The notes under the pieces are model-generated. The model was not told the origin of the DNA. It was given only the letters and a program-made list of their open reading frames with translations, and searched no databases. Position numbers and translations under genes: made by a program. DNA of 64,000 nt from Candidatus Poribacteria bacterium (GTDB taxonomy: Bacteria; Poribacteria; WGA-4E; WGA-3G), in contig OZ251518.1 of NCBI GenBank assembly GCA_965242965.1, positions 32,001 through 96,000 on the forward strand, given 5' to 3'. How positions within the stretch are numbered: the first letter of the stretch is position 1; every line of letters begins with the position of its first letter. Positions 10,516 through 20,691 of this stretch are shown in pieces.

Positions 10516-10837
10516 GAGTGTGTTTCATAAATCCGTTGGAGTGCCCTCCCGATCTCAATGCACGCGATGTTCCTTGTAGGCGCGCCCTCCTGGTCTCAAT
10601 GTGGTTCGTATCGGGACAAGGATGTCCCTCCTACCGGAAGGCATCAGGCCCACCTCTGTAGTTCGGGAGTGCCCGCTCCCGAACAGATCAGGAGCAGGTG
10701 CTCCTGCCCTACAGGGGTGACGCGCTCTGACAGCAAAACGGATGGCGATGGACAGGCCCTCGCCTTACGTGAAGGGGGGGGCACCGTAGCGCGGGGGCCT
10801 GTCCCCCGCGATGCTGAGCGATTTATGAAACTCCCTC
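10516..10837. mobile_element. MITE-like element with TIRs and 9-bp TSD
   Basis: GAGTGTGTTTCATAAATC...GATTTATGAAACTCCCTC, flanked by AATTTTAGC at 10507-10515 and 10838-10846. Confidence 0.88.
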
Positions 10838-11037
10838 AATTTTAGCAAGTTCGGCAGTCATCGCCTCAGCCGCCGTTTTCGGGACAGACTCTTCTATCGC
10901 AGAATCTGCCGGGACAAACAGCTATTGGATCAGCTGCGCCTCCTGCTGACGCATCGTATCTCCAATCCATCCTTCCGAATCCGCAACGTGAGAAGACAGG
11001 AGCCGTGAACGTAATAAAAAGGATACTATCCCAACGT

Positions 11038-11739
11038 TCAATCGTCAAGCGGTTTTTTCAGCAATTGCAACGGTTTGCAAAAAGAGCAAGGCGTGTGACT
11101 CTGTTTCGCCCTACCCAACGGGAGAGCCTTCGCCCTTTTGCTTCTTTTGAGGACGACGCACTTCTCACGATGGAACTTACTTCCTGAGGGAGTGACGTAG
11201 ACAAGGGTGTCATCATCGGGTAGAATTCCTTGCCCAATTGGTGCCCACAATCCCTTTTCGGTTGTCCGTGCGCGCTCCTCGTAATGCGTAAACAAGGTAA
11301 GATGCTCAAACGTTGCCTGCGTGTTCACCTGCGCGTAACCTTGCCGCACCACTTCCAGATTCACAAACAACTCATCTGGCGCGCGGCGGAGATACGCCTG
11401 TAAATTTCCAGCGGTTTCGGGCACGTCGTCCTCAAATTCGAGATAGACAGACTCACCGAGCAAGAGGTTATGCAGAAACGCCATCGCTTCTACCTGCGCT
11501 GTCTCGCTCGGGTTATCAGGATGCATCGCCTCTGGCACCTGCACGCCGATAAGTTTGACAACTGTCGGTGTGTCCTCGTAGTCAATGTTTACCGTGGCGG
11601 CATCGATGACTTTTAGGACTGAGAACGTGGTGTCGTCGGCGAACTCCACATCGGGATAGGGGAGGAGGCCGTTGTCGCTGTAATAGACGGATGCGCCTCC
11701 GAAAATGAGGAGTAGTGTTATGAAGATTTTTAATTTCAT
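11038..11739 (-). CDS. Thermonuclease (SNase)-fold protein with N-terminal signal/TM and C-terminal Cys/His metal-binding module; catalytic residues substituted
   Basis: VID..T, V.LIGV..PE, AYL...FVNLEVVRQGYA, AR...KGLW and YVT.SG.KFH..C...C..C motifs. Confidence 0.82.
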   Translation of the reverse strand: MKLKIFITLLLIFGGASVYYSDNGLLPYPDVEFADDTTFSVLKVIDAATVNIDYEDTPTVVKLIGVQVPEAMHPDNPSETAQVEAMAFLHNLLLGESVYLEFEDDVPETAGNLQAYLRRAPDELFVNLEVVRQGYAQVNTQATFEHLTLFTHYEERARTTEKGLWAPIGQGILPDDDTLVYVTPSGSKFHREKCVVLKRSKRAKALPLGRAKQSHTPCSFCKPLQLLKKPLDD

Positions 11740-11823
11740 AGATAAATCCTCCGTTGCAAACCAGCGGATAGTTTACGTTTTACCGAACAACTACGTTGGC
11801 ACTCGCCGCTGTTGCTAAATCTG

Positions 11824-12717
11824 CTAACTTGATTGGCGACGAAGATACGACTCCCGGATAGAACCATACCGATGCGCAAATTGCTGATGCTCCGGACTAC
11901 GTTTTAGCATTTGGTGACCTCTTCCCTCTTGTTCGGAATGGCAACCGAAGCAAAGAGATATAAGGTTCTCTGGAGTATTATTCTGTTTGTCGCGGTCTAT
12001 GTGATGTGCATGGAGAAAACGGCTATCGTTTTTAAGATTAATACCGCATTCCATACATCTCCAATTAGCCCTTTCGCGACATGCCAATGAGATATATTTC
12101 CAACCTGCCGGATAACCAGATGTTCTATCAACGGTCAGCGGAGCGGTGAGAGGCCCGTAGAGTCCATCTATCGGCGGCAGTTCATAGGCATCGTCAATTG
12201 CCTGAAACCAGGCATCTAGCGAAAACTCCATATCCGAACCATCAAAGAAGTCGACCCAACTAAAAGAAGGTTCGCCAAACCAAGTCTGTTGACCGAATCG
12301 ATTTGGGGCACAGTCCCTCTGGAGTTTTTTTAGACAACTTTTGCAGATTTCTAGTGTCTTCGTCGCTGGTTCGGTGTGTCCGGGAAAATAGAGGAGGAAT
12401 TCCCCATCTGTCCGGCGCGTCAGGACATAACGGGCCGCTTTGCCCCGAGTTCGCATGCCCTTGATTACAGGACAATTTACAATGTGATATTTAGGGAGGT
12501 CACCCTTTACATCTCGGATATAGAGAATCACCTTTCTGCCTTTGAATACGAGACTACCATCAGGGTGTTCGTTAATCAAATTAAGGTTCTCTGAAGCTAC
12601 GCCATCCTGACTGAGTAGTTGTCTGTCAATATCAGGATCAAATGTCAGTAAAGGAGCCCCTAGTTGCTTGCGCAGCCTATTTAATCCATCGTGATTATGG
12701 AAATCAGGCAACTTCAA
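11824..12717 (-). CDS. zorE: Zorya type II HNH nuclease ZorE
   Basis: G...GRKVILYIRD, YHI..C, C..CL, SGY...W..IS...RE.A...C..CGINL and HAHH..K.NN..NL..LC..CH; lies downstream of zorAB; TTG start after AGGAGG. Confidence 0.85.
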   Translation of the reverse strand: MKLPDFHNHDGLNRLRKQLGAPLLTFDPDIDRQLLSQDGVASENLNLINEHPDGSLVFKGRKVILYIRDVKGDLPKYHIVNCPVIKGMRTRGKAARYVLTRRTDGEFLLYFPGHTEPATKTLEICKSCLKKLQRDCAPNRFGQQTWFGEPSFSWVDFFDGSDMEFSLDAWFQAIDDAYELPPIDGLYGPLTAPLTVDRTSGYPAGWKYISLACRERANWRCMECGINLKNDSRFLHAHHIDRDKQNNTPENLISLCFGCHSEQEGRGHQMLKRSPEHQQFAHRYGSIRESYLRRQSS

Positions 12718-12728
12718 TTCATTTCCTC

Positions 12729-13808
12729 CTATTGATTGAATTCCTCTAGAAGTTCCTTAATCTCGTCAATGAGTTTCTCGGATTCTGTGACAACCCGAAA
12801 CTCAACGCGACGCGATGCCTCTTGATTCTCCATCAGAAGGTTCACAACCCGTTCTCGTGTCTCCGGTTTAAGATGAGCGAACCTTTGAATAGCGGCTACA
12901 GATTCAACAATGTCCGCTATCGTGATATTTTCGTTACCCCGTGATTCTGCAATTTCGCGGAGAACCTGCCGATGCAACTGTCTCACTAACTCTGCCGGGA
13001 TTCCCGTTTCCCTCCTCACGGCATCATAAGGGTTCACTACGGATGAACGATTTCCTACCAAATCCGGAATGAGTTGGCTAGAGGATAACCCATTGGCAGT
13101 TAACTTTTTCTTAAGCCACTCCCTATTCTGGATTACCCCAGGATGCCCAATCTGCAGAACATAGCGGAGCACGTTTCTCGCCCGGTTTTGCGATAACTCC
13201 ATGTTGTTAATGTAGGCCTCGTCCCGCGCGACCTGCAAGAACCATTCGCTAGAGGTATGGCCTTCAATGCGGATTTCCGCGATACTATCCCTATATTCAG
13301 GCTTCGTCAGGATTGCGACGTACCGCGGAAAGAAATCACGTAAGACGTTCTTAAACGCGTCTGGAACGGTAGCCTTTCCTTGGGTAAAAGGTTTCCCAAA
13401 GCGGATCGAGAGGCTTTCTATGTCTAAATAGCCGCGCCACTTTGTCCTGAATAGCTGTCTTTTGGTAGGAGTGCCTTCAAACTCCGCATGCAACTCTTCG
13501 GACAGTTGGGCTTGCAAATTTTTGTAAGCCCCCAGGAGGTCTTCAATCTTAACCTGAAGACCCTTAATCCGATTTGATTCACGTTCTGCATTCGCCCTAT
13601 GACGGTCGGCATTTACCATGTAACTAATGGCAATAAAGAGAAATATCACCATCAACCCGGCCATTACGTCAGATATGGAGACCCAATGCTCCTCAGTTTC
13701 CTGCGTCCTTAATCCAAACAATTTTCCAACCCTCTTAGTTTCTTCCGTTGGTTCCCGGCTGACACCGCTAGGATGGATTATCATCATCCGGTGGACTGCC
13801 TTTTGCAA
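12729..13808 (-). CDS. zorB: Zorya ZorB (MotB/OmpA-like); true start probably slightly downstream
   Basis: HWVSISDVMAGLMVIFL TM with conserved Asp; IRIEGHTS, NMELSQNRA and SRRVEF OmpA motifs. Confidence 0.87.
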   Translation of the reverse strand: MQKAVHRMMIIHPSGVSREPTEETKRVGKLFGLRTQETEEHWVSISDVMAGLMVIFLFIAISYMVNADRHRANAERESNRIKGLQVKIEDLLGAYKNLQAQLSEELHAEFEGTPTKRQLFRTKWRGYLDIESLSIRFGKPFTQGKATVPDAFKNVLRDFFPRYVAILTKPEYRDSIAEIRIEGHTSSEWFLQVARDEAYINNMELSQNRARNVLRYVLQIGHPGVIQNREWLKKKLTANGLSSSQLIPDLVGNRSSVVNPYDAVRRETGIPAELVRQLHRQVLREIAESRGNENITIADIVESVAAIQRFAHLKPETRERVVNLLMENQEASRRVEFRVVTESEKLIDEIKELLEEFNQ

Positions 13809-15087
13809 TAGTCAAAACCCGACGCAGTTCCTCCGTTAATGGACGGTAATCTTCAGCAAACGTTTTAGACAGACTGGCGAGTTGATCTGCTAAACTTCCT
13901 AAGGCTTTCTTCAGTTGTTCCTCAAGAGCTTTATCCAGACAATCCACTTGATCAATCATGTGCTGAGTACTTTTACGGAGTGCCTCATCCAACGCATCAG
14001 TTTGTCTTTTCAATGCATCGCGCTGGCTTGCTATGCTTTTATTCGAGGCTTTAATCGCGGTATCAACGGATGCAGAAAAGTCCTTGGTGAGTTTGTCCAA
14101 GTTATTCTGGATAAGCGGAATTGCTTCTTGCGCTCTCTTGCGCAATTCGCTAAACGCCACCAACTGATCATTCAACGTGTGGAGGATAGGATCCAATTTT
14201 TCAGCGCAGGCAACAATGCTCTCACTGCGTTCCGAGATCAAGCGCGAGGATTTCGCTACGTCTTCCAGCGAGTCGCGAGCCTTTTCAAAAGTCTTAGCGG
14301 CATCTCCCAATCCATTGATAAGTTCACTCATCCGTGTGATAAGTTCACTCATCTGTTGGCCGTATTGCTTTTGCCATGTTACGGTTTGCCTAACAGCCTC
14401 GTTTAACTCCTTGAAGTTATCCCCAAACTGCTCAGTAATCTTCGCGTTGAACTTCTCAATGACGGTTTTAAGGGCCTCAATCAGTTCCTCGGTGGCAAGT
14501 TCCGCTACACTTTCAGCAACATTCTCTGAAAACGCCCGAAATTCACCTACCAACTGCCCCAATTGGGTAAGCATGGCTTTTTGAACATCTTCCAATGCCT
14601 TCAATGTCTCCCGGGTTTTGTCTCCCTCTTCCTTTCCCAATTTCGCTAATTGATCATGATTCGCCCTAACTACTGCCTTTAATTTCCGCAGTTCGGTGTG
14701 CGTCGTGCCCTGCCCACCGGTAAGGGAATCACGAATCTGATTTAGCACAGTAATAGGATTTTCCTGTGCGCCCGGACCTATCTTTTGAAATAGGGAACCA
14801 AATTTCAAGATGAGCGAGGACCCGATACCCACAACGGAAGTCAGGAAGGCGAGTTTGAGTCCCTCCAATAAGGGACCAATGCTTCCTTCAATATTCGTGA
14901 CCTCAAAACGCCAAAGTCCGACGAAGATACCCAGGAACGTTCCAAAGATACCCACAACGGTTAAGATTGATGCCCACGCGTTAGTCCGTGTATGCCAAGC
15001 GTTATCTTCCGTGGATAATTTCCGCCAAGCGACAACCAACAAGACAATTTGGATGGAAACAAAGAGAACCAGAAGCAAATTTCCCAT
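13768..15087 (-). CDS. zorA: Zorya ZorA (MotA-like TMs plus long helical tail)
   Basis: GIFGTFLGI..GL..F....I..SI..LL.GLK.AF.TS.VG and EQFGDNFK.L...V.WQ motifs; ORF is open to 15210, ATG 15087 preferred. Confidence 0.87.
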   Translation of the reverse strand: MGNLLLVLFVSIQIVLLVVAWRKLSTEDNAWHTRTNAWASILTVVGIFGTFLGIFVGLWRFEVTNIEGSIGPLLEGLKLAFLTSVVGIGSSLILKFGSLFQKIGPGAQENPITVLNQIRDSLTGGQGTTHTELRKLKAVVRANHDQLAKLGKEEGDKTRETLKALEDVQKAMLTQLGQLVGEFRAFSENVAESVAELATEELIEALKTVIEKFNAKITEQFGDNFKELNEAVRQTVTWQKQYGQQMSELITRMSELINGLGDAAKTFEKARDSLEDVAKSSRLISERSESIVACAEKLDPILHTLNDQLVAFSELRKRAQEAIPLIQNNLDKLTKDFSASVDTAIKASNKSIASQRDALKRQTDALDEALRKSTQHMIDQVDCLDKALEEQLKKALGSLADQLASLSKTFAEDYRPLTEELRRVLTIAKGSPPDDDNPS

Positions 15088-15188
15088 AAAACACCTTTGC
15101 GGCATAAAATAATACGTTAATTTTTGCACAAAGGGTACAAAAAGTCTAGAAAATTCGGCAATCTGCGCGAAGCGATTTTCAGAAATTC

Positions 15189-15878
15189 CTATGGATTGCA
15201 CTGAAGGCACGGTAAGTAATACCGTTCAGCATCTTCCCGTGATATCGAAATGCGAGTTTTTCGCAATAAACCGCAACTCGCACGATGATACTTACTCCCT
15301 GCTGGCGTAATGTAGACAGCAGTATCAGCAGTCGGTAATGCTTGAGACGCTGTGACATCCTCCCGAACGTTTTCTTTCGCCTGCCACAAGCCTTTCTTCA
15401 CCACTCGGGCGCGCCCTTCGTAGGACGAAAACTCCGAGAGGTGCGAGAACGGAACCAGCGTATTCACTTGCGCGTAGCCTTGCCGCACTACCTCTAAATT
15501 CACGAATAACTTGTCAGGCGCGCGGTAGAGATACGCCTGCAAATCTCCTGCGGTCTCCGGCGTATCTGTCTCAAATTGGAGATAGACAGACTCACCGAGC
15601 AAAAGGTTGTGCAGGAACGCGGTCGCCTCTTCCCGCGCTACTTCAACCGGGTTATCGGGATGCATCGCCGCTGGCACCTGCACGCCGATGAGTTTGACAA
15701 CTGTCGGGTTGCCTTCGTAGTGAATCTCTACCGTGGCGGCATCGGTGACTTTTAGCACGGGAAACGTGGCTGCGTCGGTAAAGTCCTCTGCGGGATAAGG
15801 CAACAGGCCGTCGTCGCTGTAATAGATGGATACGAATCCGAAAACGAGGAATAGGGTTACGAAGATTTTTAATTTCAT
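15189..15878 (-). CDS. Second thermonuclease-fold paralog; catalytic residues substituted
   Basis: High nucleotide and protein similarity to 11038-11739, including the upstream GCAACGGAGGATTTATC RBS region. Confidence 0.82.
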   Translation of the reverse strand: MKLKIFVTLFLVFGFVSIYYSDDGLLPYPAEDFTDAATFPVLKVTDAATVEIHYEGNPTVVKLIGVQVPAAMHPDNPVEVAREEATAFLHNLLLGESVYLQFETDTPETAGDLQAYLYRAPDKLFVNLEVVRQGYAQVNTLVPFSHLSEFSSYEGRARVVKKGLWQAKENVREDVTASQALPTADTAVYITPAGSKYHRASCGLLRKTRISISREDAERYYLPCLQCNP

Positions 15879-15947
15879 GGATAAATCCTCCGTTGCTGAG
15901 GCTTTGCTGTTGGAAGTAGGGTTAGGTTTTAGTCTCGCGTGGAAGAT

Positions 15948-15976
15948 ATGATACAAGAAGTGGGGTTAAATGTCAA
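15948..15976 (-). promoter_or_regulatory. sigma70 promoter upstream of the SNase-zorABE-SNase cluster
   Basis: TTGACA-17 bp-TATCAT on the minus strand. Confidence 0.72.
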
Positions 15977-15988
15977 GGGAAAATGACG

Positions 15989-16029
15989 AAAAAAACGCGG
16001 CGCGAGGCATTGAGTCCTTCGCGCCGCGT
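15989..16029 (-). terminator. Rho-independent terminator after the vWA gene
   Basis: ACGCGGCGCGA/TCGCGCCGCGT stem followed by a T run on the minus strand. Confidence 0.8.
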
Positions 16030-16046
16030 GCTGGTGAATTCTCATC

Positions 16047-18221
16047 CTACTGCTTCTTCAGACGGATAGCCTGACGCACCAACTCAAGCAATTCCTCGTG
16101 TTGTGGGGTTTGGAGGTTGATGCCTTTAAGCACCTGTCGGACCTCTTTCAAGTCGCCGTTTTTTGCCCAGAAACTCCCGCGCAGAATTTCGGCGTATTGT
16201 GCAACAGCGGATGCCAATTGAAACGCAGGCGATGCGGCTTCAAACGTTGCTTTCAAATCTGCCGTGGAGAGAGACTTGGCGAATTCTGTCGCTTCTTCGG
16301 TACCCGGGTCTTTGTAGCGGATAGAGACTTTGGCGAGATGGCCATCACATCCGGCATTCTTATGGAGTTTCAGTTCGTAGAGGGCGGTGACGTTGTGGCC
16401 TGAACCGACATCGCCGGCATCTACGTCGTCATCGCGGAAGTCTTCGTGCTCTAGGTGGCGTTTTTCGTAGCCGAGCAATCGGAATCGACTGACTGTCTGC
16501 GGATTGAATTCTACTTGCATTTTGGCATCTTTGGCAATGACTTGCAAGGTGCCGGTCAGATTTTCGACAAAGATGCGTTTCGCCTCGGCGAGGGTATCTA
16601 CATAGGCATACATCCCGTTGCCTTTGTTGGCGAGTTGTTCCATCAAGACATCGTTGTAGTTGCCCATGCCGAAGCCTACGGTAGTTAACCAGATGCCCTT
16701 GTCGAGGTAGGAGGAAACCTTGTCAAGGATCGTGTCAGGTCCTGTGTATCCGACATTGGCAACGCCATCAGAGCATAAGATTACGCGATTAATGCAATCG
16801 GCATCGAGATTCTTCGCGGCGAGTTCGTAGCCGAGATGAATTCCTTTTTCGGCATAGGTTGCGCCGGCGGGAACTAGCGATTGGATTGCGTTCAAGATGT
16901 GTTCGCGGTTCTCAACGCGGGTATGAGGTAAGACCACTTGGGCATCGGAGCCGTAAGTGACAATGCCTACCTCATCGCCTTCGCGGAGTTGGGCGACGAG
17001 GAGCGTCAAGGCGCGCTTCACCAACTCCAACCGATTCTCCATGTGCATTGAACCGGAGATATCAATGACGAACGTTAGTCGTGCATCTTTCCGGTCTGTT
17101 TCAGGGACAACGCGTCCTTTGATACCGATACGTAACATCTTCAGCCGTTTTCCTTCACCGAATTTGGAGGGCGCGCCTTCGAGATGCACGGCGAACGCTC
17201 CTTCTGTCGGCGGCGGATAGTCATAGTCAAAGGTGTTGATAAACTCCTCAACGCGAACGGCTTCTGGCGGTAGAAGGTATCCATCTCGGAGATGGCGGCG
17301 CATGATGGAATAGGAGGCGGTGTCCACATCCATTCCGAACGTTGAGCGGGTGTCGTCCTCGGTATCGATAAACGGATTGGTGCCGTGGTGATTGAAGTAG
17401 ACATCGTTGTAAGGCGCATCGTTCGGCGGATTCAAGCCGGTGGAGAGGGATTGAAACTGCAGGCGCGCGTCTTGAGGCGATGGACTGTAGGCCAGAGACT
17501 CAAGGGAAAGTGAACATGGGACGGCCATGGATGTATCAGCGGACAACAGCGTCGCGAAAGATTCTGGAACGTTAACTTCATCAGAACCTCTAAGGACAAA
17601 ATCGCGGTATGTCCTGACGTTTTTGGCTTTGTATTTGACGATGGCGCGGTGTTTTCCCTTGCGATGGATGGTAGCATCGTGCGAGGCACACCGGAATTCT
17701 GGGAGTTCATCCGCGCTCTCAATTGAGAGCGAGAAGACGAGCGATTCCACCTGCGCGAAGGAATCAATTGAACGCGTCTTGACGGGGATGGACAAAGGAT
17801 AGGTATACCTCATCAGCACGTCAGTGTCCAGTTGCACCTGTTGTGTGTATTGGATTTGAACGCGTTGCTCCCCGTTGGGCGCGACGAGAAACTTGTGAGT
17901 GGGGATGTCACCGTCATCCGCGGACTGAGACGTGGTCTGTTCGCGGAAGCAGAGGTAGGGTGCGTCACACCCTGTCATTTGCTTTTCGGTAGACAGCGCG
18001 ATACCGTCAATGCGAAGCGCGAAATCGGAAATGTCTGTGTTAAAACCGGGTGGGAAGATGCAGGCACCCTCCATTTCAACGTCACCCCGGTTTTTCAGCA
18101 CCAATTCGATTTTTGTCGTCGCGATGTTATCAACGATTGCGACGTTCACTTGATACTTTTTGAGGCGGATAGGCACTGCAAAAGCATCTGTGTGAACGTG
18201 CGGCATTTTTCGATTTTTCAT
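16047..18221 (-). CDS. VIT-like plus von Willebrand A domain protein (YfbK/DUF3520-like)
   Basis: STFGMDVDTASY, VRVEEFIN.F.Y, DISGSM MIDAS, SDGVANVG and FRLLGYE motifs; N-terminal VIT-like region. Confidence 0.88.
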   Translation of the reverse strand: MKNRKMPHVHTDAFAVPIRLKKYQVNVAIVDNIATTKIELVLKNRGDVEMEGACIFPPGFNTDISDFALRIDGIALSTEKQMTGCDAPYLCFREQTTSQSADDGDIPTHKFLVAPNGEQRVQIQYTQQVQLDTDVLMRYTYPLSIPVKTRSIDSFAQVESLVFSLSIESADELPEFRCASHDATIHRKGKHRAIVKYKAKNVRTYRDFVLRGSDEVNVPESFATLLSADTSMAVPCSLSLESLAYSPSPQDARLQFQSLSTGLNPPNDAPYNDVYFNHHGTNPFIDTEDDTRSTFGMDVDTASYSIMRRHLRDGYLLPPEAVRVEEFINTFDYDYPPPTEGAFAVHLEGAPSKFGEGKRLKMLRIGIKGRVVPETDRKDARLTFVIDISGSMHMENRLELVKRALTLLVAQLREGDEVGIVTYGSDAQVVLPHTRVENREHILNAIQSLVPAGATYAEKGIHLGYELAAKNLDADCINRVILCSDGVANVGYTGPDTILDKVSSYLDKGIWLTTVGFGMGNYNDVLMEQLANKGNGMYAYVDTLAEAKRIFVENLTGTLQVIAKDAKMQVEFNPQTVSRFRLLGYEKRHLEHEDFRDDDVDAGDVGSGHNVTALYELKLHKNAGCDGHLAKVSIRYKDPGTEEATEFAKSLSTADLKATFEAASPAFQLASAVAQYAEILRGSFWAKNGDLKEVRQVLKGINLQTPQHEELLELVRQAIRLKKQ

Positions 18222-18307: not shown

Positions 18308-18336
18308 TTGACATTTGGCGCGCGATATGCTATAAT
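18308..18336 (+). promoter_or_regulatory. Perfect-consensus sigma70 promoter
   Basis: TTGACA-17 bp-TATAAT with extended TG. Confidence 0.82.
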
Positions 18337-18346
18337 TTATTATTAG

Positions 18347-18942
18347 GAGGGGGTTTCATATTTCGCTGCACACCCGTAGGAGAGACCTCCCGGTCTCGAT
18401 GGCACCTCGGTAGGAGAGCCTTCCTGGTCTCGATGCGTTCGGGGGGTTCCCGTAGGGCGAGGGCCTGTCCCTCGCCGTGCTTGATTGCCCTTTTCACCGT
18501 AGGGCGAGGGCCTGTCCCTCGCCATGCGCCGGTCGTGACAGCAAACGTCCGTGGTCTCTGGGTTGCGGGTGTTTTTCGCATAGGTTGAGAGATCGCGGGG
18601 GACAGGTAATTTGTCTCGTTTCTGTAGGTCAAGATCGCCTGATCTTGACCCGTTCGGGAGCAGGTGCTCCCGAACTACAGTCACTGGGGCACGCGGGCGA
18701 TCTCGGGGGAAACCCGCTCGCATGCACGTGTGGCATGCGAGGGCCCCCGCGCTACGGTAGGAAAGCTGATTTTCCTCGCCAAGATGTTCCTAATCTTGGA
18801 AATCTTGGAAATCTTGGAAATCCTGCTTCAGACTATTAAGATTGCGGGGGCCTGTCCCCCGCGCTACGAACTGCGGACGTTTGAGGCATCGAGACCGGGA
18901 GGTCTCTCCTACGGGGAAGGCATTGATATATGAAACCCTCTC
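18347..18942. mobile_element. MITE-like element with TIRs and ~13-bp TSD
   Basis: GAGGGGGTTTCATAT...ATATGAAACCCTCTC, flanked by AATTTATTATTA(G/T). Confidence 0.8.
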
Positions 18943-19032: not shown

Positions 19033-20691
19033 ATGGACATTCAACAGAATCATCGACAGAGGCGAACTTTCGGCACGCGAGGGCCGGTGAATCCGCAACA
19101 GCACTATGTTGTCGCGCGCAGGGAAGAACTCGCCGATTTCATTCAGCGTGTCAAAGAGGGACGCTACGTCGTCATTTTCGCGCCACGTCAGACGGGCAAG
19201 ACGACGTTTTTCCGTTGTGCTTTGGATGTGCTTGCGAAGGAAGAATCGGATTATTTTCCGCTTGAATTGAGTCTTGAGATGTATAAAAACGTCACGACTG
19301 AGGCTTTTTACGCGAATCTCACGGAAGATATTGAGGAGGCAATTGAGGCGAGCCTCCAGCGGCGCGGGAGCGTTCCTTCGGATGCCTTAAGGCAATTCTT
19401 GGCGGATACAACGCTCACCGATCATTTCGCACTGCGGCGGTTTTTTAGGAGACTTCCGAGTCTGCTTGAAGCGCAACGGATTGTGCTCATCATTGACGAA
19501 TTTTCGGGCATTCCGCCTGCTGTGGTGAGTGATTTTCTTCACACGCTGCGTCGGATTTATCACACGGATTTGTCTATTCGGAGTCCTTACAGCGTCGGCA
19601 TCGTCGGCGTGAAGAATATCACGCAGTTGAACTATGACAGGAGCATCTCGCCGTTCAACATCCAAGACGAATTCTCTTTACCACCTTTCACGTTGGAACA
19701 AGTGGGGGAGCTTCTTGGGCAATACACGGCAGAAACCGGTCAGGCGTTCGCGCCGGAAGTTATTCGGACGCTGCACCGGCAGACAGGCGGACAACCGTTT
19801 CTCGTCAACCGCCTCTCGGAGATACTCACCGAGGAGATGGATATCCCGAAAAGCGAACGGATTACCCTCGCGCATTTCGCGAAAGCGCACACTGCACTCC
19901 TGCGAGAAGATAACGTGAACTTTAACCATCTCACTACTAACATCCGGCGGAATGCACGCTTTGAGAGGACCTTGATGCAGATTGCTTGCTCGGGGAAGAG
20001 TCTCCTCTTCACACCGCGCGATGAGGTTATGGAGGAACTCGCCATACACGGTGTGATCCAAAAGGGTGCCGATGGCATGTGTGAGATTGTCAATCCGATT
20101 TATCAAATCTGTATTATGCAGACATTTCAACCCGCGGTGAACGGATTGGAACGGGACTACTTCCCAGAAGATGCTTGCCCAAAAGGCTCGGATTATCTCA
20201 CGCCGACTGGGGCGTTAGACATGGAGGCGTTGCTGAATAACTTTCGGGATTTCATCGCCCGCGTCGGGTTTCGCATCCTCCAAGTGCCCGGACTGCCACG
20301 GGAATCGGTAGGACAACACCTGCTCGCTAGTTATCTCGACGCATTCGTGCAGATGGTGGGTGGTGATATGTATCTCGAACTGCCAACGGGAAGGGGCCGG
20401 ATGGATCTGGTGGTGTTTCACAAGAACCGCAAGTATATCGTCGAAATCAAAATTTGGCAAGGCGCTCAGGGTTATGAGGGAGGCAAGGAGCAACTCGCCG
20501 CCTATCTCAAATCGGAGGGGGTTTCGGAGGGCTACTATGTCGTATTCGACCATGGTAAGAATCCGAACCCGCGCGACGAGACAGAAACGGTGAACGGGTT
20601 CAGGATTCGGAGTTATGTGATTCCGGTGGTGCAGGAACGGCCGTCCGATCTTTCAGAGGAAGAAGCGGCATACAGGCAGGTTTCCCAATAA
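19033..20691 (+). CDS. AAA-like P-loop ATPase fused to a C-terminal PD-(D/E)XK nuclease-like domain
   Basis: APRQTGKTT Walker A, LIIDE Walker B, SPFNI, TGGQPFLV; C-terminal E..TGRGR.D...Y.VEIK...QL..YL. Confidence 0.85.
   Translation: MDIQQNHRQRRTFGTRGPVNPQQHYVVARREELADFIQRVKEGRYVVIFAPRQTGKTTFFRCALDVLAKEESDYFPLELSLEMYKNVTTEAFYANLTEDIEEAIEASLQRRGSVPSDALRQFLADTTLTDHFALRRFFRRLPSLLEAQRIVLIIDEFSGIPPAVVSDFLHTLRRIYHTDLSIRSPYSVGIVGVKNITQLNYDRSISPFNIQDEFSLPPFTLEQVGELLGQYTAETGQAFAPEVIRTLHRQTGGQPFLVNRLSEILTEEMDIPKSERITLAHFAKAHTALLREDNVNFNHLTTNIRRNARFERTLMQIACSGKSLLFTPRDEVMEELAIHGVIQKGADGMCEIVNPIYQICIMQTFQPAVNGLERDYFPEDACPKGSDYLTPTGALDMEALLNNFRDFIARVGFRILQVPGLPRESVGQHLLASYLDAFVQMVGGDMYLELPTGRGRMDLVVFHKNRKYIVEIKIWQGAQGYEGGKEQLAAYLKSEGVSEGYYVVFDHGKNPNPRDETETVNGFRIRSYVIPVVQERPSDLSEEEAAYRQVSQ

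Follow-up and report, generated by a model that had tools for sequence, protein, structure and literature searches.

Two SNase-fold proteins predicted to be catalytically dead bracket a divergent type II Zorya operon in a Poribacteria genus

We analysed a stretch of 64,000 nucleotides from Candidatus Poribacteria bacterium (NCBI GenBank assembly GCA_965242965.1, contig OZ251518.1, positions 32,001 to 96,000 of the forward strand; in the following, the window), in which the type II Zorya defence genes zorA, zorB and zorE are bracketed by two genes encoding proteins of the staphylococcal nuclease (SNase) fold, here named SN1 and SN2. The five open reading frames all lie on the minus strand in the order SN1-zorA-zorB-zorE-SN2, with the coordinates that an earlier annotation made from the DNA letters alone, in the following the original prediction, had given them (Table 1). 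The island containing the Zorya genes is flanked by a heparinase-like gene on one side and by an M81 peptidase gene on the other. Public sequencing runs containing the locus are for the most part sponge metagenomes, and a Logan contig from the sample of another study (X2 record 21, 14846-15404) spans the zorA-SN1 junction. The genome of the window is referred to as G000, G001 and G002 being genomes of the same genus and G003, G004 and G005 genomes of sister genera.

Table 1. Genes and predicted signals of the SN1-zorABE-SN2 locus, in window positions
Feature	Position	Strand	Properties
SN1	15189-15878	minus	229 aa; ATG behind GGAGGA ribosome-binding site; C-terminus ...LPCLQCNP (SN1-type)
zorA (type II)	13768-15105	minus	445 aa from ATG at 15105; MotA/ExbB-like channel and coiled-coil tail
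zorB (type II)	12729-13721	minus	MotB/OmpA-like, 330 aa long form; insertion in the periplasmic domain; transmembrane Asp present
zorE	11824-12717	minus	HNH effector of type II Zorya; start 11 nt past zorB
SN2	11038-11739	minus	233 aa; 84 nt 3' of zorE; C-terminus ...TPCSFCKPLQLLKKPLDD (SN2-type)
Terminator hairpin and U-run of the upstream vWA/YfbK_C gene	15988..16029	minus	fold prediction
Promoter-like site of SN1	15948..15976	minus	sigma-70-like TTGACA-17-TATCAT, 11/12 matches
SN1-zorA spacer	15106..15188	minus	promoter-like element TAGACT (15148-15143)-17-AAAAAT (15125-15120), preceded by TG

The assignment of zorABE to type II Zorya, already made in the original prediction, is borne out by the PADLOC profiles PDLC00637 (ZorA2; 8e-71, profile positions 21-417 of 420), PDLC00641 (ZorB2; 7e-71) and PDLC00643 (ZorE2; 3e-47, profile positions 3-280 of 282), all three profiles being covered almost completely. 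NCBIfam returns the same three type II families with every score being under the curated equivalog cut-off, e.g. 125.5 bits against 700 for ZorA (NF041792) and 140 bits against 400 for ZorB (NF041787), and for this reason we call the system divergent. In Pfam, ZorB matches OmpA with 32 bits (cut-off 27.2) and ZorE matches HNH with 24.9 bits (cut-off 21.4), and the transmembrane Asp of ZorB, D18, is invariant across 39 aligned ZorBs including the window protein. Judged from these matches, zorABE is a divergent yet complete, apparently intact type II Zorya, which resembles the known systems in the order zorA-zorB-zorE, in a ZorA whose MotA-like channel is followed by a coiled-coil tail, in a ZorB combining the transmembrane Asp with an OmpA-like peptidoglycan-binding domain and in the HNH domain of ZorE. 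It differs from them in being bracketed by two SNase-fold genes, which adjoin none of 79 surveyed systems, and in the long form of its ZorB with the periplasmic-domain insertion. This insertion of about 70-80 residues (zorB 12820-13060) lies in or after the OmpA-like domain; the long form is common to a Poribacteria clade (316-356 aa), close short forms having 254-262 aa. The closest ZorB loci in genome contigs are from metagenome-assembled genomes of Poribacteria, and one ZorB relative carries Candidatus Poribacteria as its source name. According to PMC11890865, ZorAB forms a 5:2 ion-driven motor that upon infection brings the nickase ZorE to the membrane, and in PMC11946911 ZorAB is proposed to sense envelope perturbation via binding of ZorB to peptidoglycan.

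SN1 and SN2 both match the Pfam family SNase (PF00565) with 43 bits, the cut-off being 21, and the identity between the two proteins is 61% (E 4e-102). The AlphaFold (AF2) model of SN2 has a mean predicted local distance difference test (pLDDT) score of 81, reaching about 90 over residues 31-170, and Foldseek matches it with E 1e-9 to structures of staphylococcal nuclease (1snc and others), with which both proteins share the oligonucleotide/oligosaccharide-binding (OB)-like fold. They differ from it in failing the residue set of the active enzyme, i.e. D21, D40, R35, R87 and E43: the alignment to staphylococcal nuclease has D21 replaced by A, R35 by K, D40 by Q, T41 by V and Y85 by A in both proteins, R87 replaced by N in SN2 and by D in SN1, and E43 present in SN2 only, SN1 having A. 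We take D21 and D40 to be the Ca2+ ligands of staphylococcal nuclease, R35 and R87 to bind phosphate and E43 to be the general base.

We compared the best 120 of 227 homologue clusters, of which 41 are close (at least 59% identity) and 79 distant (at most 50% identity). D21, D40 and R87 are missing from every one of the 41 close clusters, with A or S in place of D21, K, Q or S in place of D40, and R87 being either substituted or lost together with a five-residue loop, while E43 is kept in 39 of them. Among the distant clusters 76 of 79 are canonical at D21, D40 and R87, the exceptions being P0083, P0077 and P0096. The replacement of R35 by K carries little weight, since R35 is variable among the canonical clusters too. 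By these alignments and by the selection on the two proteins, the dead active site of the SN clade is not decay. Both are under purifying selection, the ratio of nonsynonymous to synonymous divergence (dN/dS) between the orthologs of G000 and G002 being 0.19 for SN1 and 0.24 for SN2.

SN1 and SN2 both begin with the residues MKLKIF, after which come some 15 hydrophobic residues and then an acidic stretch, suggesting a signal peptide or signal anchor, so that the bodies of the proteins should lie outside the cytoplasmic membrane. At the C-terminus both carry an H-x3-C...C-x2-C module (H190, C194, C218, C221), in which an invariant G, K, H and C are followed by P-C-x2-C; H190 and C194 do not vary among 78 sequences, in which C218 and C221 show a conservation of at least 90%. 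No Pfam family, PF02805 Ada_Zn_binding included, covers this module in the two window proteins or in the 78 homologues. Folded alone with 17 homologues it reaches a pLDDT of 81.5, and of 48,161 representative chains the one closest to it in structure is the N-terminal zinc domain of E. coli Ada (N-Ada) bound to DNA (1u8b; Z 5.1, root-mean-square deviation 2.9, 55 of 58 residues), followed by N-Ada 1eyf (Z 3.8), the next unrelated chain being at Z 2.6. The three best rows of a Foldseek search with the module are all N-Ada, at a non-significant E of 2.0, and Ada_Zn_binding occurs in 20% of the members of the Atlas cluster nearest to the module. The ligand spacing of N-Ada, [H/C]-x3-C-x23-26-C-x2-C, corresponds to that of the SN module, presuming the N-Ada residue numbers on which we base this comparison, and the 58-residue SN C-terminus likewise models as a small beta/alpha zinc-knuckle-like fold. 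Differences are the first ligand, which is His in the SN module and the methyl-accepting Cys in N-Ada, the predicted export of the SN module as opposed to the cytoplasmic N-Ada, and a Z-score that is modest. With moderate confidence we regard the module as a putative N-Ada-like zinc domain that would bind the DNA backbone.

Canonical Poribacteria SNases (P0042 and relatives; 45-50% identity) have the same architecture, in which a signal sequence precedes the SNase domain and a linker leads to the H-x3-C...C-x2-C module. This suggests as ancestor a secreted nuclease that carried a DNA-binding module, the SN clade having lost the cutter and kept the binder. These live enzymes are single-copy in variable contexts, whereas the SN genes are duplicated around a defence operon. 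The SNase domain of the SN proteins also matches the candidate defence effector PADLOC PDLC01096 'C3a212 SNc+LTD' (E 1e-16 to 1e-17), but only over positions 47-207 of 279, the SN proteins being without the LTD part and without the catalytic residues. In one metagenomic SN2-type protein of 294 aa (P0001) some 60 residues of the SNase domain are duplicated internally, which is either a real product of in-gene recombination or an artefact caused by the repeats in assembly. As for the protein descriptions in the original prediction, its three motif comparisons (DGDT to DAAT and the two others) are correct in our alignment to staphylococcal nuclease, and the N-terminal hydrophobic anchor and C-terminal Cys/His module that it noted are found in both proteins.

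Searching 176 genomes of the phylum, we found the dead SNases only in G000 and G002, the latter having the order SN1-zorA-zorB-zorE-SN2 in the same neighbourhood as the window; a further 39 dead-SNase clusters are metagenomic. In G001 (86% complete, 210 contigs) neither SNase nor ZorB was seen, but its contigs break at the borders of the region. Canonical SNase homologues of other genera are single-copy, have no Zorya gene within 10 kb and show no synteny with the locus, their neighbours varying between secreted EEP-dockerin nucleases, restriction-like genes and transposases. Representatives of SN1-type and SN2-type clusters have the contig sizes 48,853 and 54,250 in common, indicating further SN1/SN2 pairs. 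The degenerate SNase P0083 and the ZorB P0157 of a related clade likewise have representatives on contigs of identical size (65,399), and the only contig sizes shared between the SNase and ZorB cluster lists are 5,011,778 (G002) and 65,399. Solitary dead SNases without Zorya, read from few size matches, were dropped as a candidate, the size value probably describing the cluster representative only and the SN1-type and ZorB clusters having many members. Scanning Joint Genome Institute (JGI) metagenomes with the SNase alignment returned no relative, and a scan of viral contigs returned none. None of the papers searched mentions Zorya together with SNase.

Zorya loci elsewhere were surveyed through ZorB2 at 79 other loci from many phyla, 54 of them extending for 5 kb or more to either side. 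The sole SNase found in these loci is catalytically canonical and lies about 6 kb from zorA on the opposite strand. A comparable but unrelated bracketing arrangement exists around another cassette: in G039 and G028, belonging to another genus, two SNase-domain paralogues bracket an HNH / T5orf172-DUF4041 / HSDR_N cassette (L024 6596-14984, L026 6878-13127). An HSDR_N_2 domain stands at the N-terminus in three of these four SNase-domain genes, whereas the one remaining (L026, 154 aa) has the SNase domain alone; DGDT and R87 are kept, with Q at R35 and N at D40.

The interval between the heparinase-like and M81 peptidase genes is a defence hotspot. In G004 and G005, which belong to one sister genus, the two genes lie directly beside each other and the site is empty. 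In G003, from another sister genus, the same interval is occupied by an AAA_35 gene and by a Type ISP restriction-modification gene, next to which lies zorE-zorB-zorA, oriented as in the window. Its ZorA (L110 437-7657 with L116) has 714 aa compared to 445 aa in the window, and a 212-aa gene 5' of zorA was ruled out as SNase-like (hhalign probability 0.6). In a rooted tree of 37 ZorBs selected from 202, the clades of G000 and G002 are joined with a support of 99 in the Shimodaira-Hasegawa-like approximate likelihood ratio test (SH-aLRT), the G003 clade being outside. Replacement of the zorABE cassette between the SN genes, to which a first FastTree seeming to part the ZorBs of G000 and G002 had pointed, was rejected when the better-modelled tree joined them with 99. 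Tree and synteny together suggest a Zorya vertically inherited at the hotspot, with the SN genes as a later addition in one genus. We regard the SN genes as a genus-specific addition descended from the phylum's own secreted nuclease.

The two SN genes record an exchange of sequence between the copies. Over codons 1-140 the synonymous divergence (dS) between the paralogues is 0.49 in G000 and 0.24 in G002, compared to an ortholog dS of 0.67 and 0.75, whereas from codon 141 onward paralogue dS is 1.98 and 0.90 and ortholog dS 0.49 and 1.00. By the low paralogue dS of the 5' part, gene conversion has homogenised the first 420 nt of the SN genes. Two stable types, SN1 and SN2, are set apart by the C-terminal parts, each type forming one clade in an 81-row tree, and the N-termini of some metagenomic SN1-type proteins barely differ from those of the SN2-type. 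At the DNA level the homology of SN1 and SN2 starts about 20 nt 5' of the ATG, including the ribosome-binding site and no promoter, and the longest exact match is only about 25 nt. Protein identity between G000 and G002 is 78% for SN1, 70% for SN2, 71% for ZorB, 52% for ZorA and 45% for ZorE, flanking genes ranging from 75 to 94%. The GC content at third codon positions (GC3) of SN1 (0.59) and SN2 (0.60) lies in the range of the neighbouring host genes (0.55-0.65).

Transcription of the locus was judged from predicted signals. The hairpin before the SN1 promoter (window 15980-16050) has a folding energy of -30.7 kcal/mol (z -5.07, none of 200 shuffles being as good), and this predicted terminator of the upstream vWA gene would isolate the SN1 promoter from upstream transcription. 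The hexamers of the SN1 promoter recur about 320 nt 5' of SN1 in G002. The SN1-zorA spacer is 84% identical between G000 and G002, which is more than expected from the synonymous divergence of the adjoining genes, and contains directly 5' of zorA a promoter-like element reading TTGACT-17-AATAAT with a TG-extended -10 in G002 (10/12) and TAGACT-17-AAAAAT at 15148-15120 in the window (8/12). The original prediction of a single promoter before the five genes thus holds for the site 5' of SN1, with its 11/12 matches, and has to be amended by this second promoter-like element. In neither G000 nor G002 does the zorE-SN2 spacer contain a site resembling a promoter or a terminator, only the ribosome-binding site being conserved, suggesting that SN2 is probably transcribed from the zorABE promoter. 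A further promoter-like site lies over the 3' end of SN2 (window 11020-11048, TTGACG-17-TATCCT; in G002 L003 7858-7886, TTGACA-17-TATCCT with TG) and may simply reflect conserved C-terminal codons.

We tentatively favour a model according to which the SN pair is an optional, lineage-specific, co-expressed accessory of this Zorya. The lineage lost the Ca2+ ligands and R87 and kept the putative zinc module before the species split of G000 and G002, its products most likely being exported, membrane-anchored DNA binders unable to cut. SN2, with its duplicated ribosome-binding site and no promoter of its own, would probably be the fourth gene of the zor operon transcript, and the SN1 transcript starting from its own promoter may read through into zorA. 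The SN pair would bind DNA on the periplasmic side of the inner membrane, at the place where envelope perturbation is sensed by ZorAB, and would so hold or report incoming DNA.

The competing explanation, which we judge nearly as likely, regards SN1 and SN2 as bystanders, i.e. host genes with an envelope function of their own such as binding of extracellular DNA or formation of an independent passive barrier, which came to flank Zorya only through local segmental duplication in a hotspot where defence genes gather, for example by tandem duplication of an SN gene together with zorABE and subsequent loss of one zorABE copy. Four points speak for the accessory role and against mere neighbourhood: SN2 sits promoterless directly behind zorE, at a distance of 84 nt; loss of catalysis, relocation to Zorya and duplication fall on the same branch; the arrangement has outlasted an ortholog dS of 0.6-0.8 despite recombining direct repeats; and the third degenerate SNase, P0083, and the related ZorB P0157 have their representatives on contigs of equal size.

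A number of observations weigh against the accessory role, several of them also speaking for the bystander explanation. An SNase adjoins Zorya in 0 of the 79 other ZorB2 loci, in agreement with the original prediction placing SNases outside the standard definition of Zorya. The syntenic type II Zorya of G003 has no SNase, meaning that this Zorya clade does not in general depend on the SN genes, and the site is empty in G004 and G005. By its conserved promoter-like element zorABE probably has a promoter of its own. The GC and GC3 of the SN genes are host-like, the GC3 of zorA (0.48), zorB (0.52) and zorE (0.42) being lower than that of the SN genes, and the lower GC of zorABE is also found in G002 and G003. 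Paralogues on either side of a cassette are a signature of segmental duplication, an arrangement not expected of accessory genes, and the two inspected genomes of one genus effectively amount to one evolutionary event. As weak evidence in the same direction, the homologue search yielded neither a fused SNase-Zorya protein nor a longer form of SN2. The bystander explanation further gains from the active gene conversion between the SN copies and from the SNase-domain paralogues bracketing the HNH/T5orf172/HSDR_N cassette in another genus of the family. For the proposal in the original prediction of envelope-located, nucleic-acid-binding pseudo-nucleases serving ZorAB, this means that the description of the proteins is fair, given the exported fold, the lost catalysis and the zinc module, while service to the motor is left unsupported by the survey, by G003, by the separate zor promoter and by GC3. 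Its alternative of zorABE having inserted at a duplicated SNase gene fits the composition and the gene conversion as signs of a local recombination-prone duplication, but the comparison of loci suggests that Zorya was at the hotspot before the SNases arrived.

A more far-reaching form of the accessory model, which we consider unlikely, makes SN1 and SN2 genuine subunits, located in the periplasm, of a variant of Zorya II. As anchored, non-cleaving binders they would couple ZorAB to foreign DNA present in the envelope, which would activate or position the motor. The two copies would then have differentiated in their C-terminal halves, the N-terminal halves being kept alike by gene conversion. 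If true, the SN subunits would give Zorya a nucleic-acid input besides envelope perturbation.

We see little probability in the idea that the SN genes act as recombination handles, their 0.7-kb direct repeats mainly serving, or being kept, as homology arms for excision of zorABE as a circle, its loss, re-acquisition or exchange among strains through homologous recombination with an SN gene already resident. The paralogue dS below ortholog dS over codons 1-140 implies that the copies exchange sequence, the N-termini of some SN1-type proteins are nearly identical to the SN2-type, and ZorA and ZorE are far more diverged between the species than the flanking genes, all of which would suit such a role. 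The ZorB tree joining G000 and G002 fits vertical descent and not cassette exchange, however, the longest exact match is short, and purifying selection on both proteins would be needless for mere homology arms. Among the 15 contig joints listed of 44 (Logan contigs, four runs), an SN1-SN2 junction was absent. That the SN proteins are still nucleases using another metal site or other residues, forming a separate periplasmic restriction barrier, is very improbable: E43 is kept in SN2 and in most of the dead clade and the fold and putative DNA-binding module appear intact, but both acidic Ca2+ ligands are replaced and R87 is replaced or its loop deleted throughout the 41 clusters, SN1 lacking E43 too, and single mutations at these catalytic positions of staphylococcal nuclease cut kcat by orders of magnitude.

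Outside the Zorya operon, a VIT/vWA/YfbK_C gene (window 16047-18221) lies between SN1 and an AAA_35 gene and is missing at this place in G002. The AAA_35 ATPase gene itself (window 19033-20691) adjoins the island and belongs to a strongly expanded family, three related genomes having 14, 20 and 22 matches, frequently in tandem. Short interspersed repeats occur across many intergenic spacers of the window, e.g. at 10600-10840 and 18330-18900. The summed contig depth of the bin 10607-10813 ranges from about 57,000 to 395,000 across four runs, which points to a very high-copy element family resembling repetitive extragenic palindromic (REP) sequences or miniature inverted-repeat transposable elements (MITE).

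In the published model ZorAB detects infection by sensing envelope perturbation (PMC11946911). A natural type II Zorya accompanied by dead DNA binders that are predicted to be exported would offer a ready test of a periplasmic nucleic-acid input to the motor. Even if the link between the SN pair and Zorya is not functional, the locus is a clear case of an enzyme turned into a pseudo-enzyme and kept under selection, of concerted evolution of direct repeats around a defence cassette, and of a defined defence hotspot in an uncultivated phylum of sponge symbionts.

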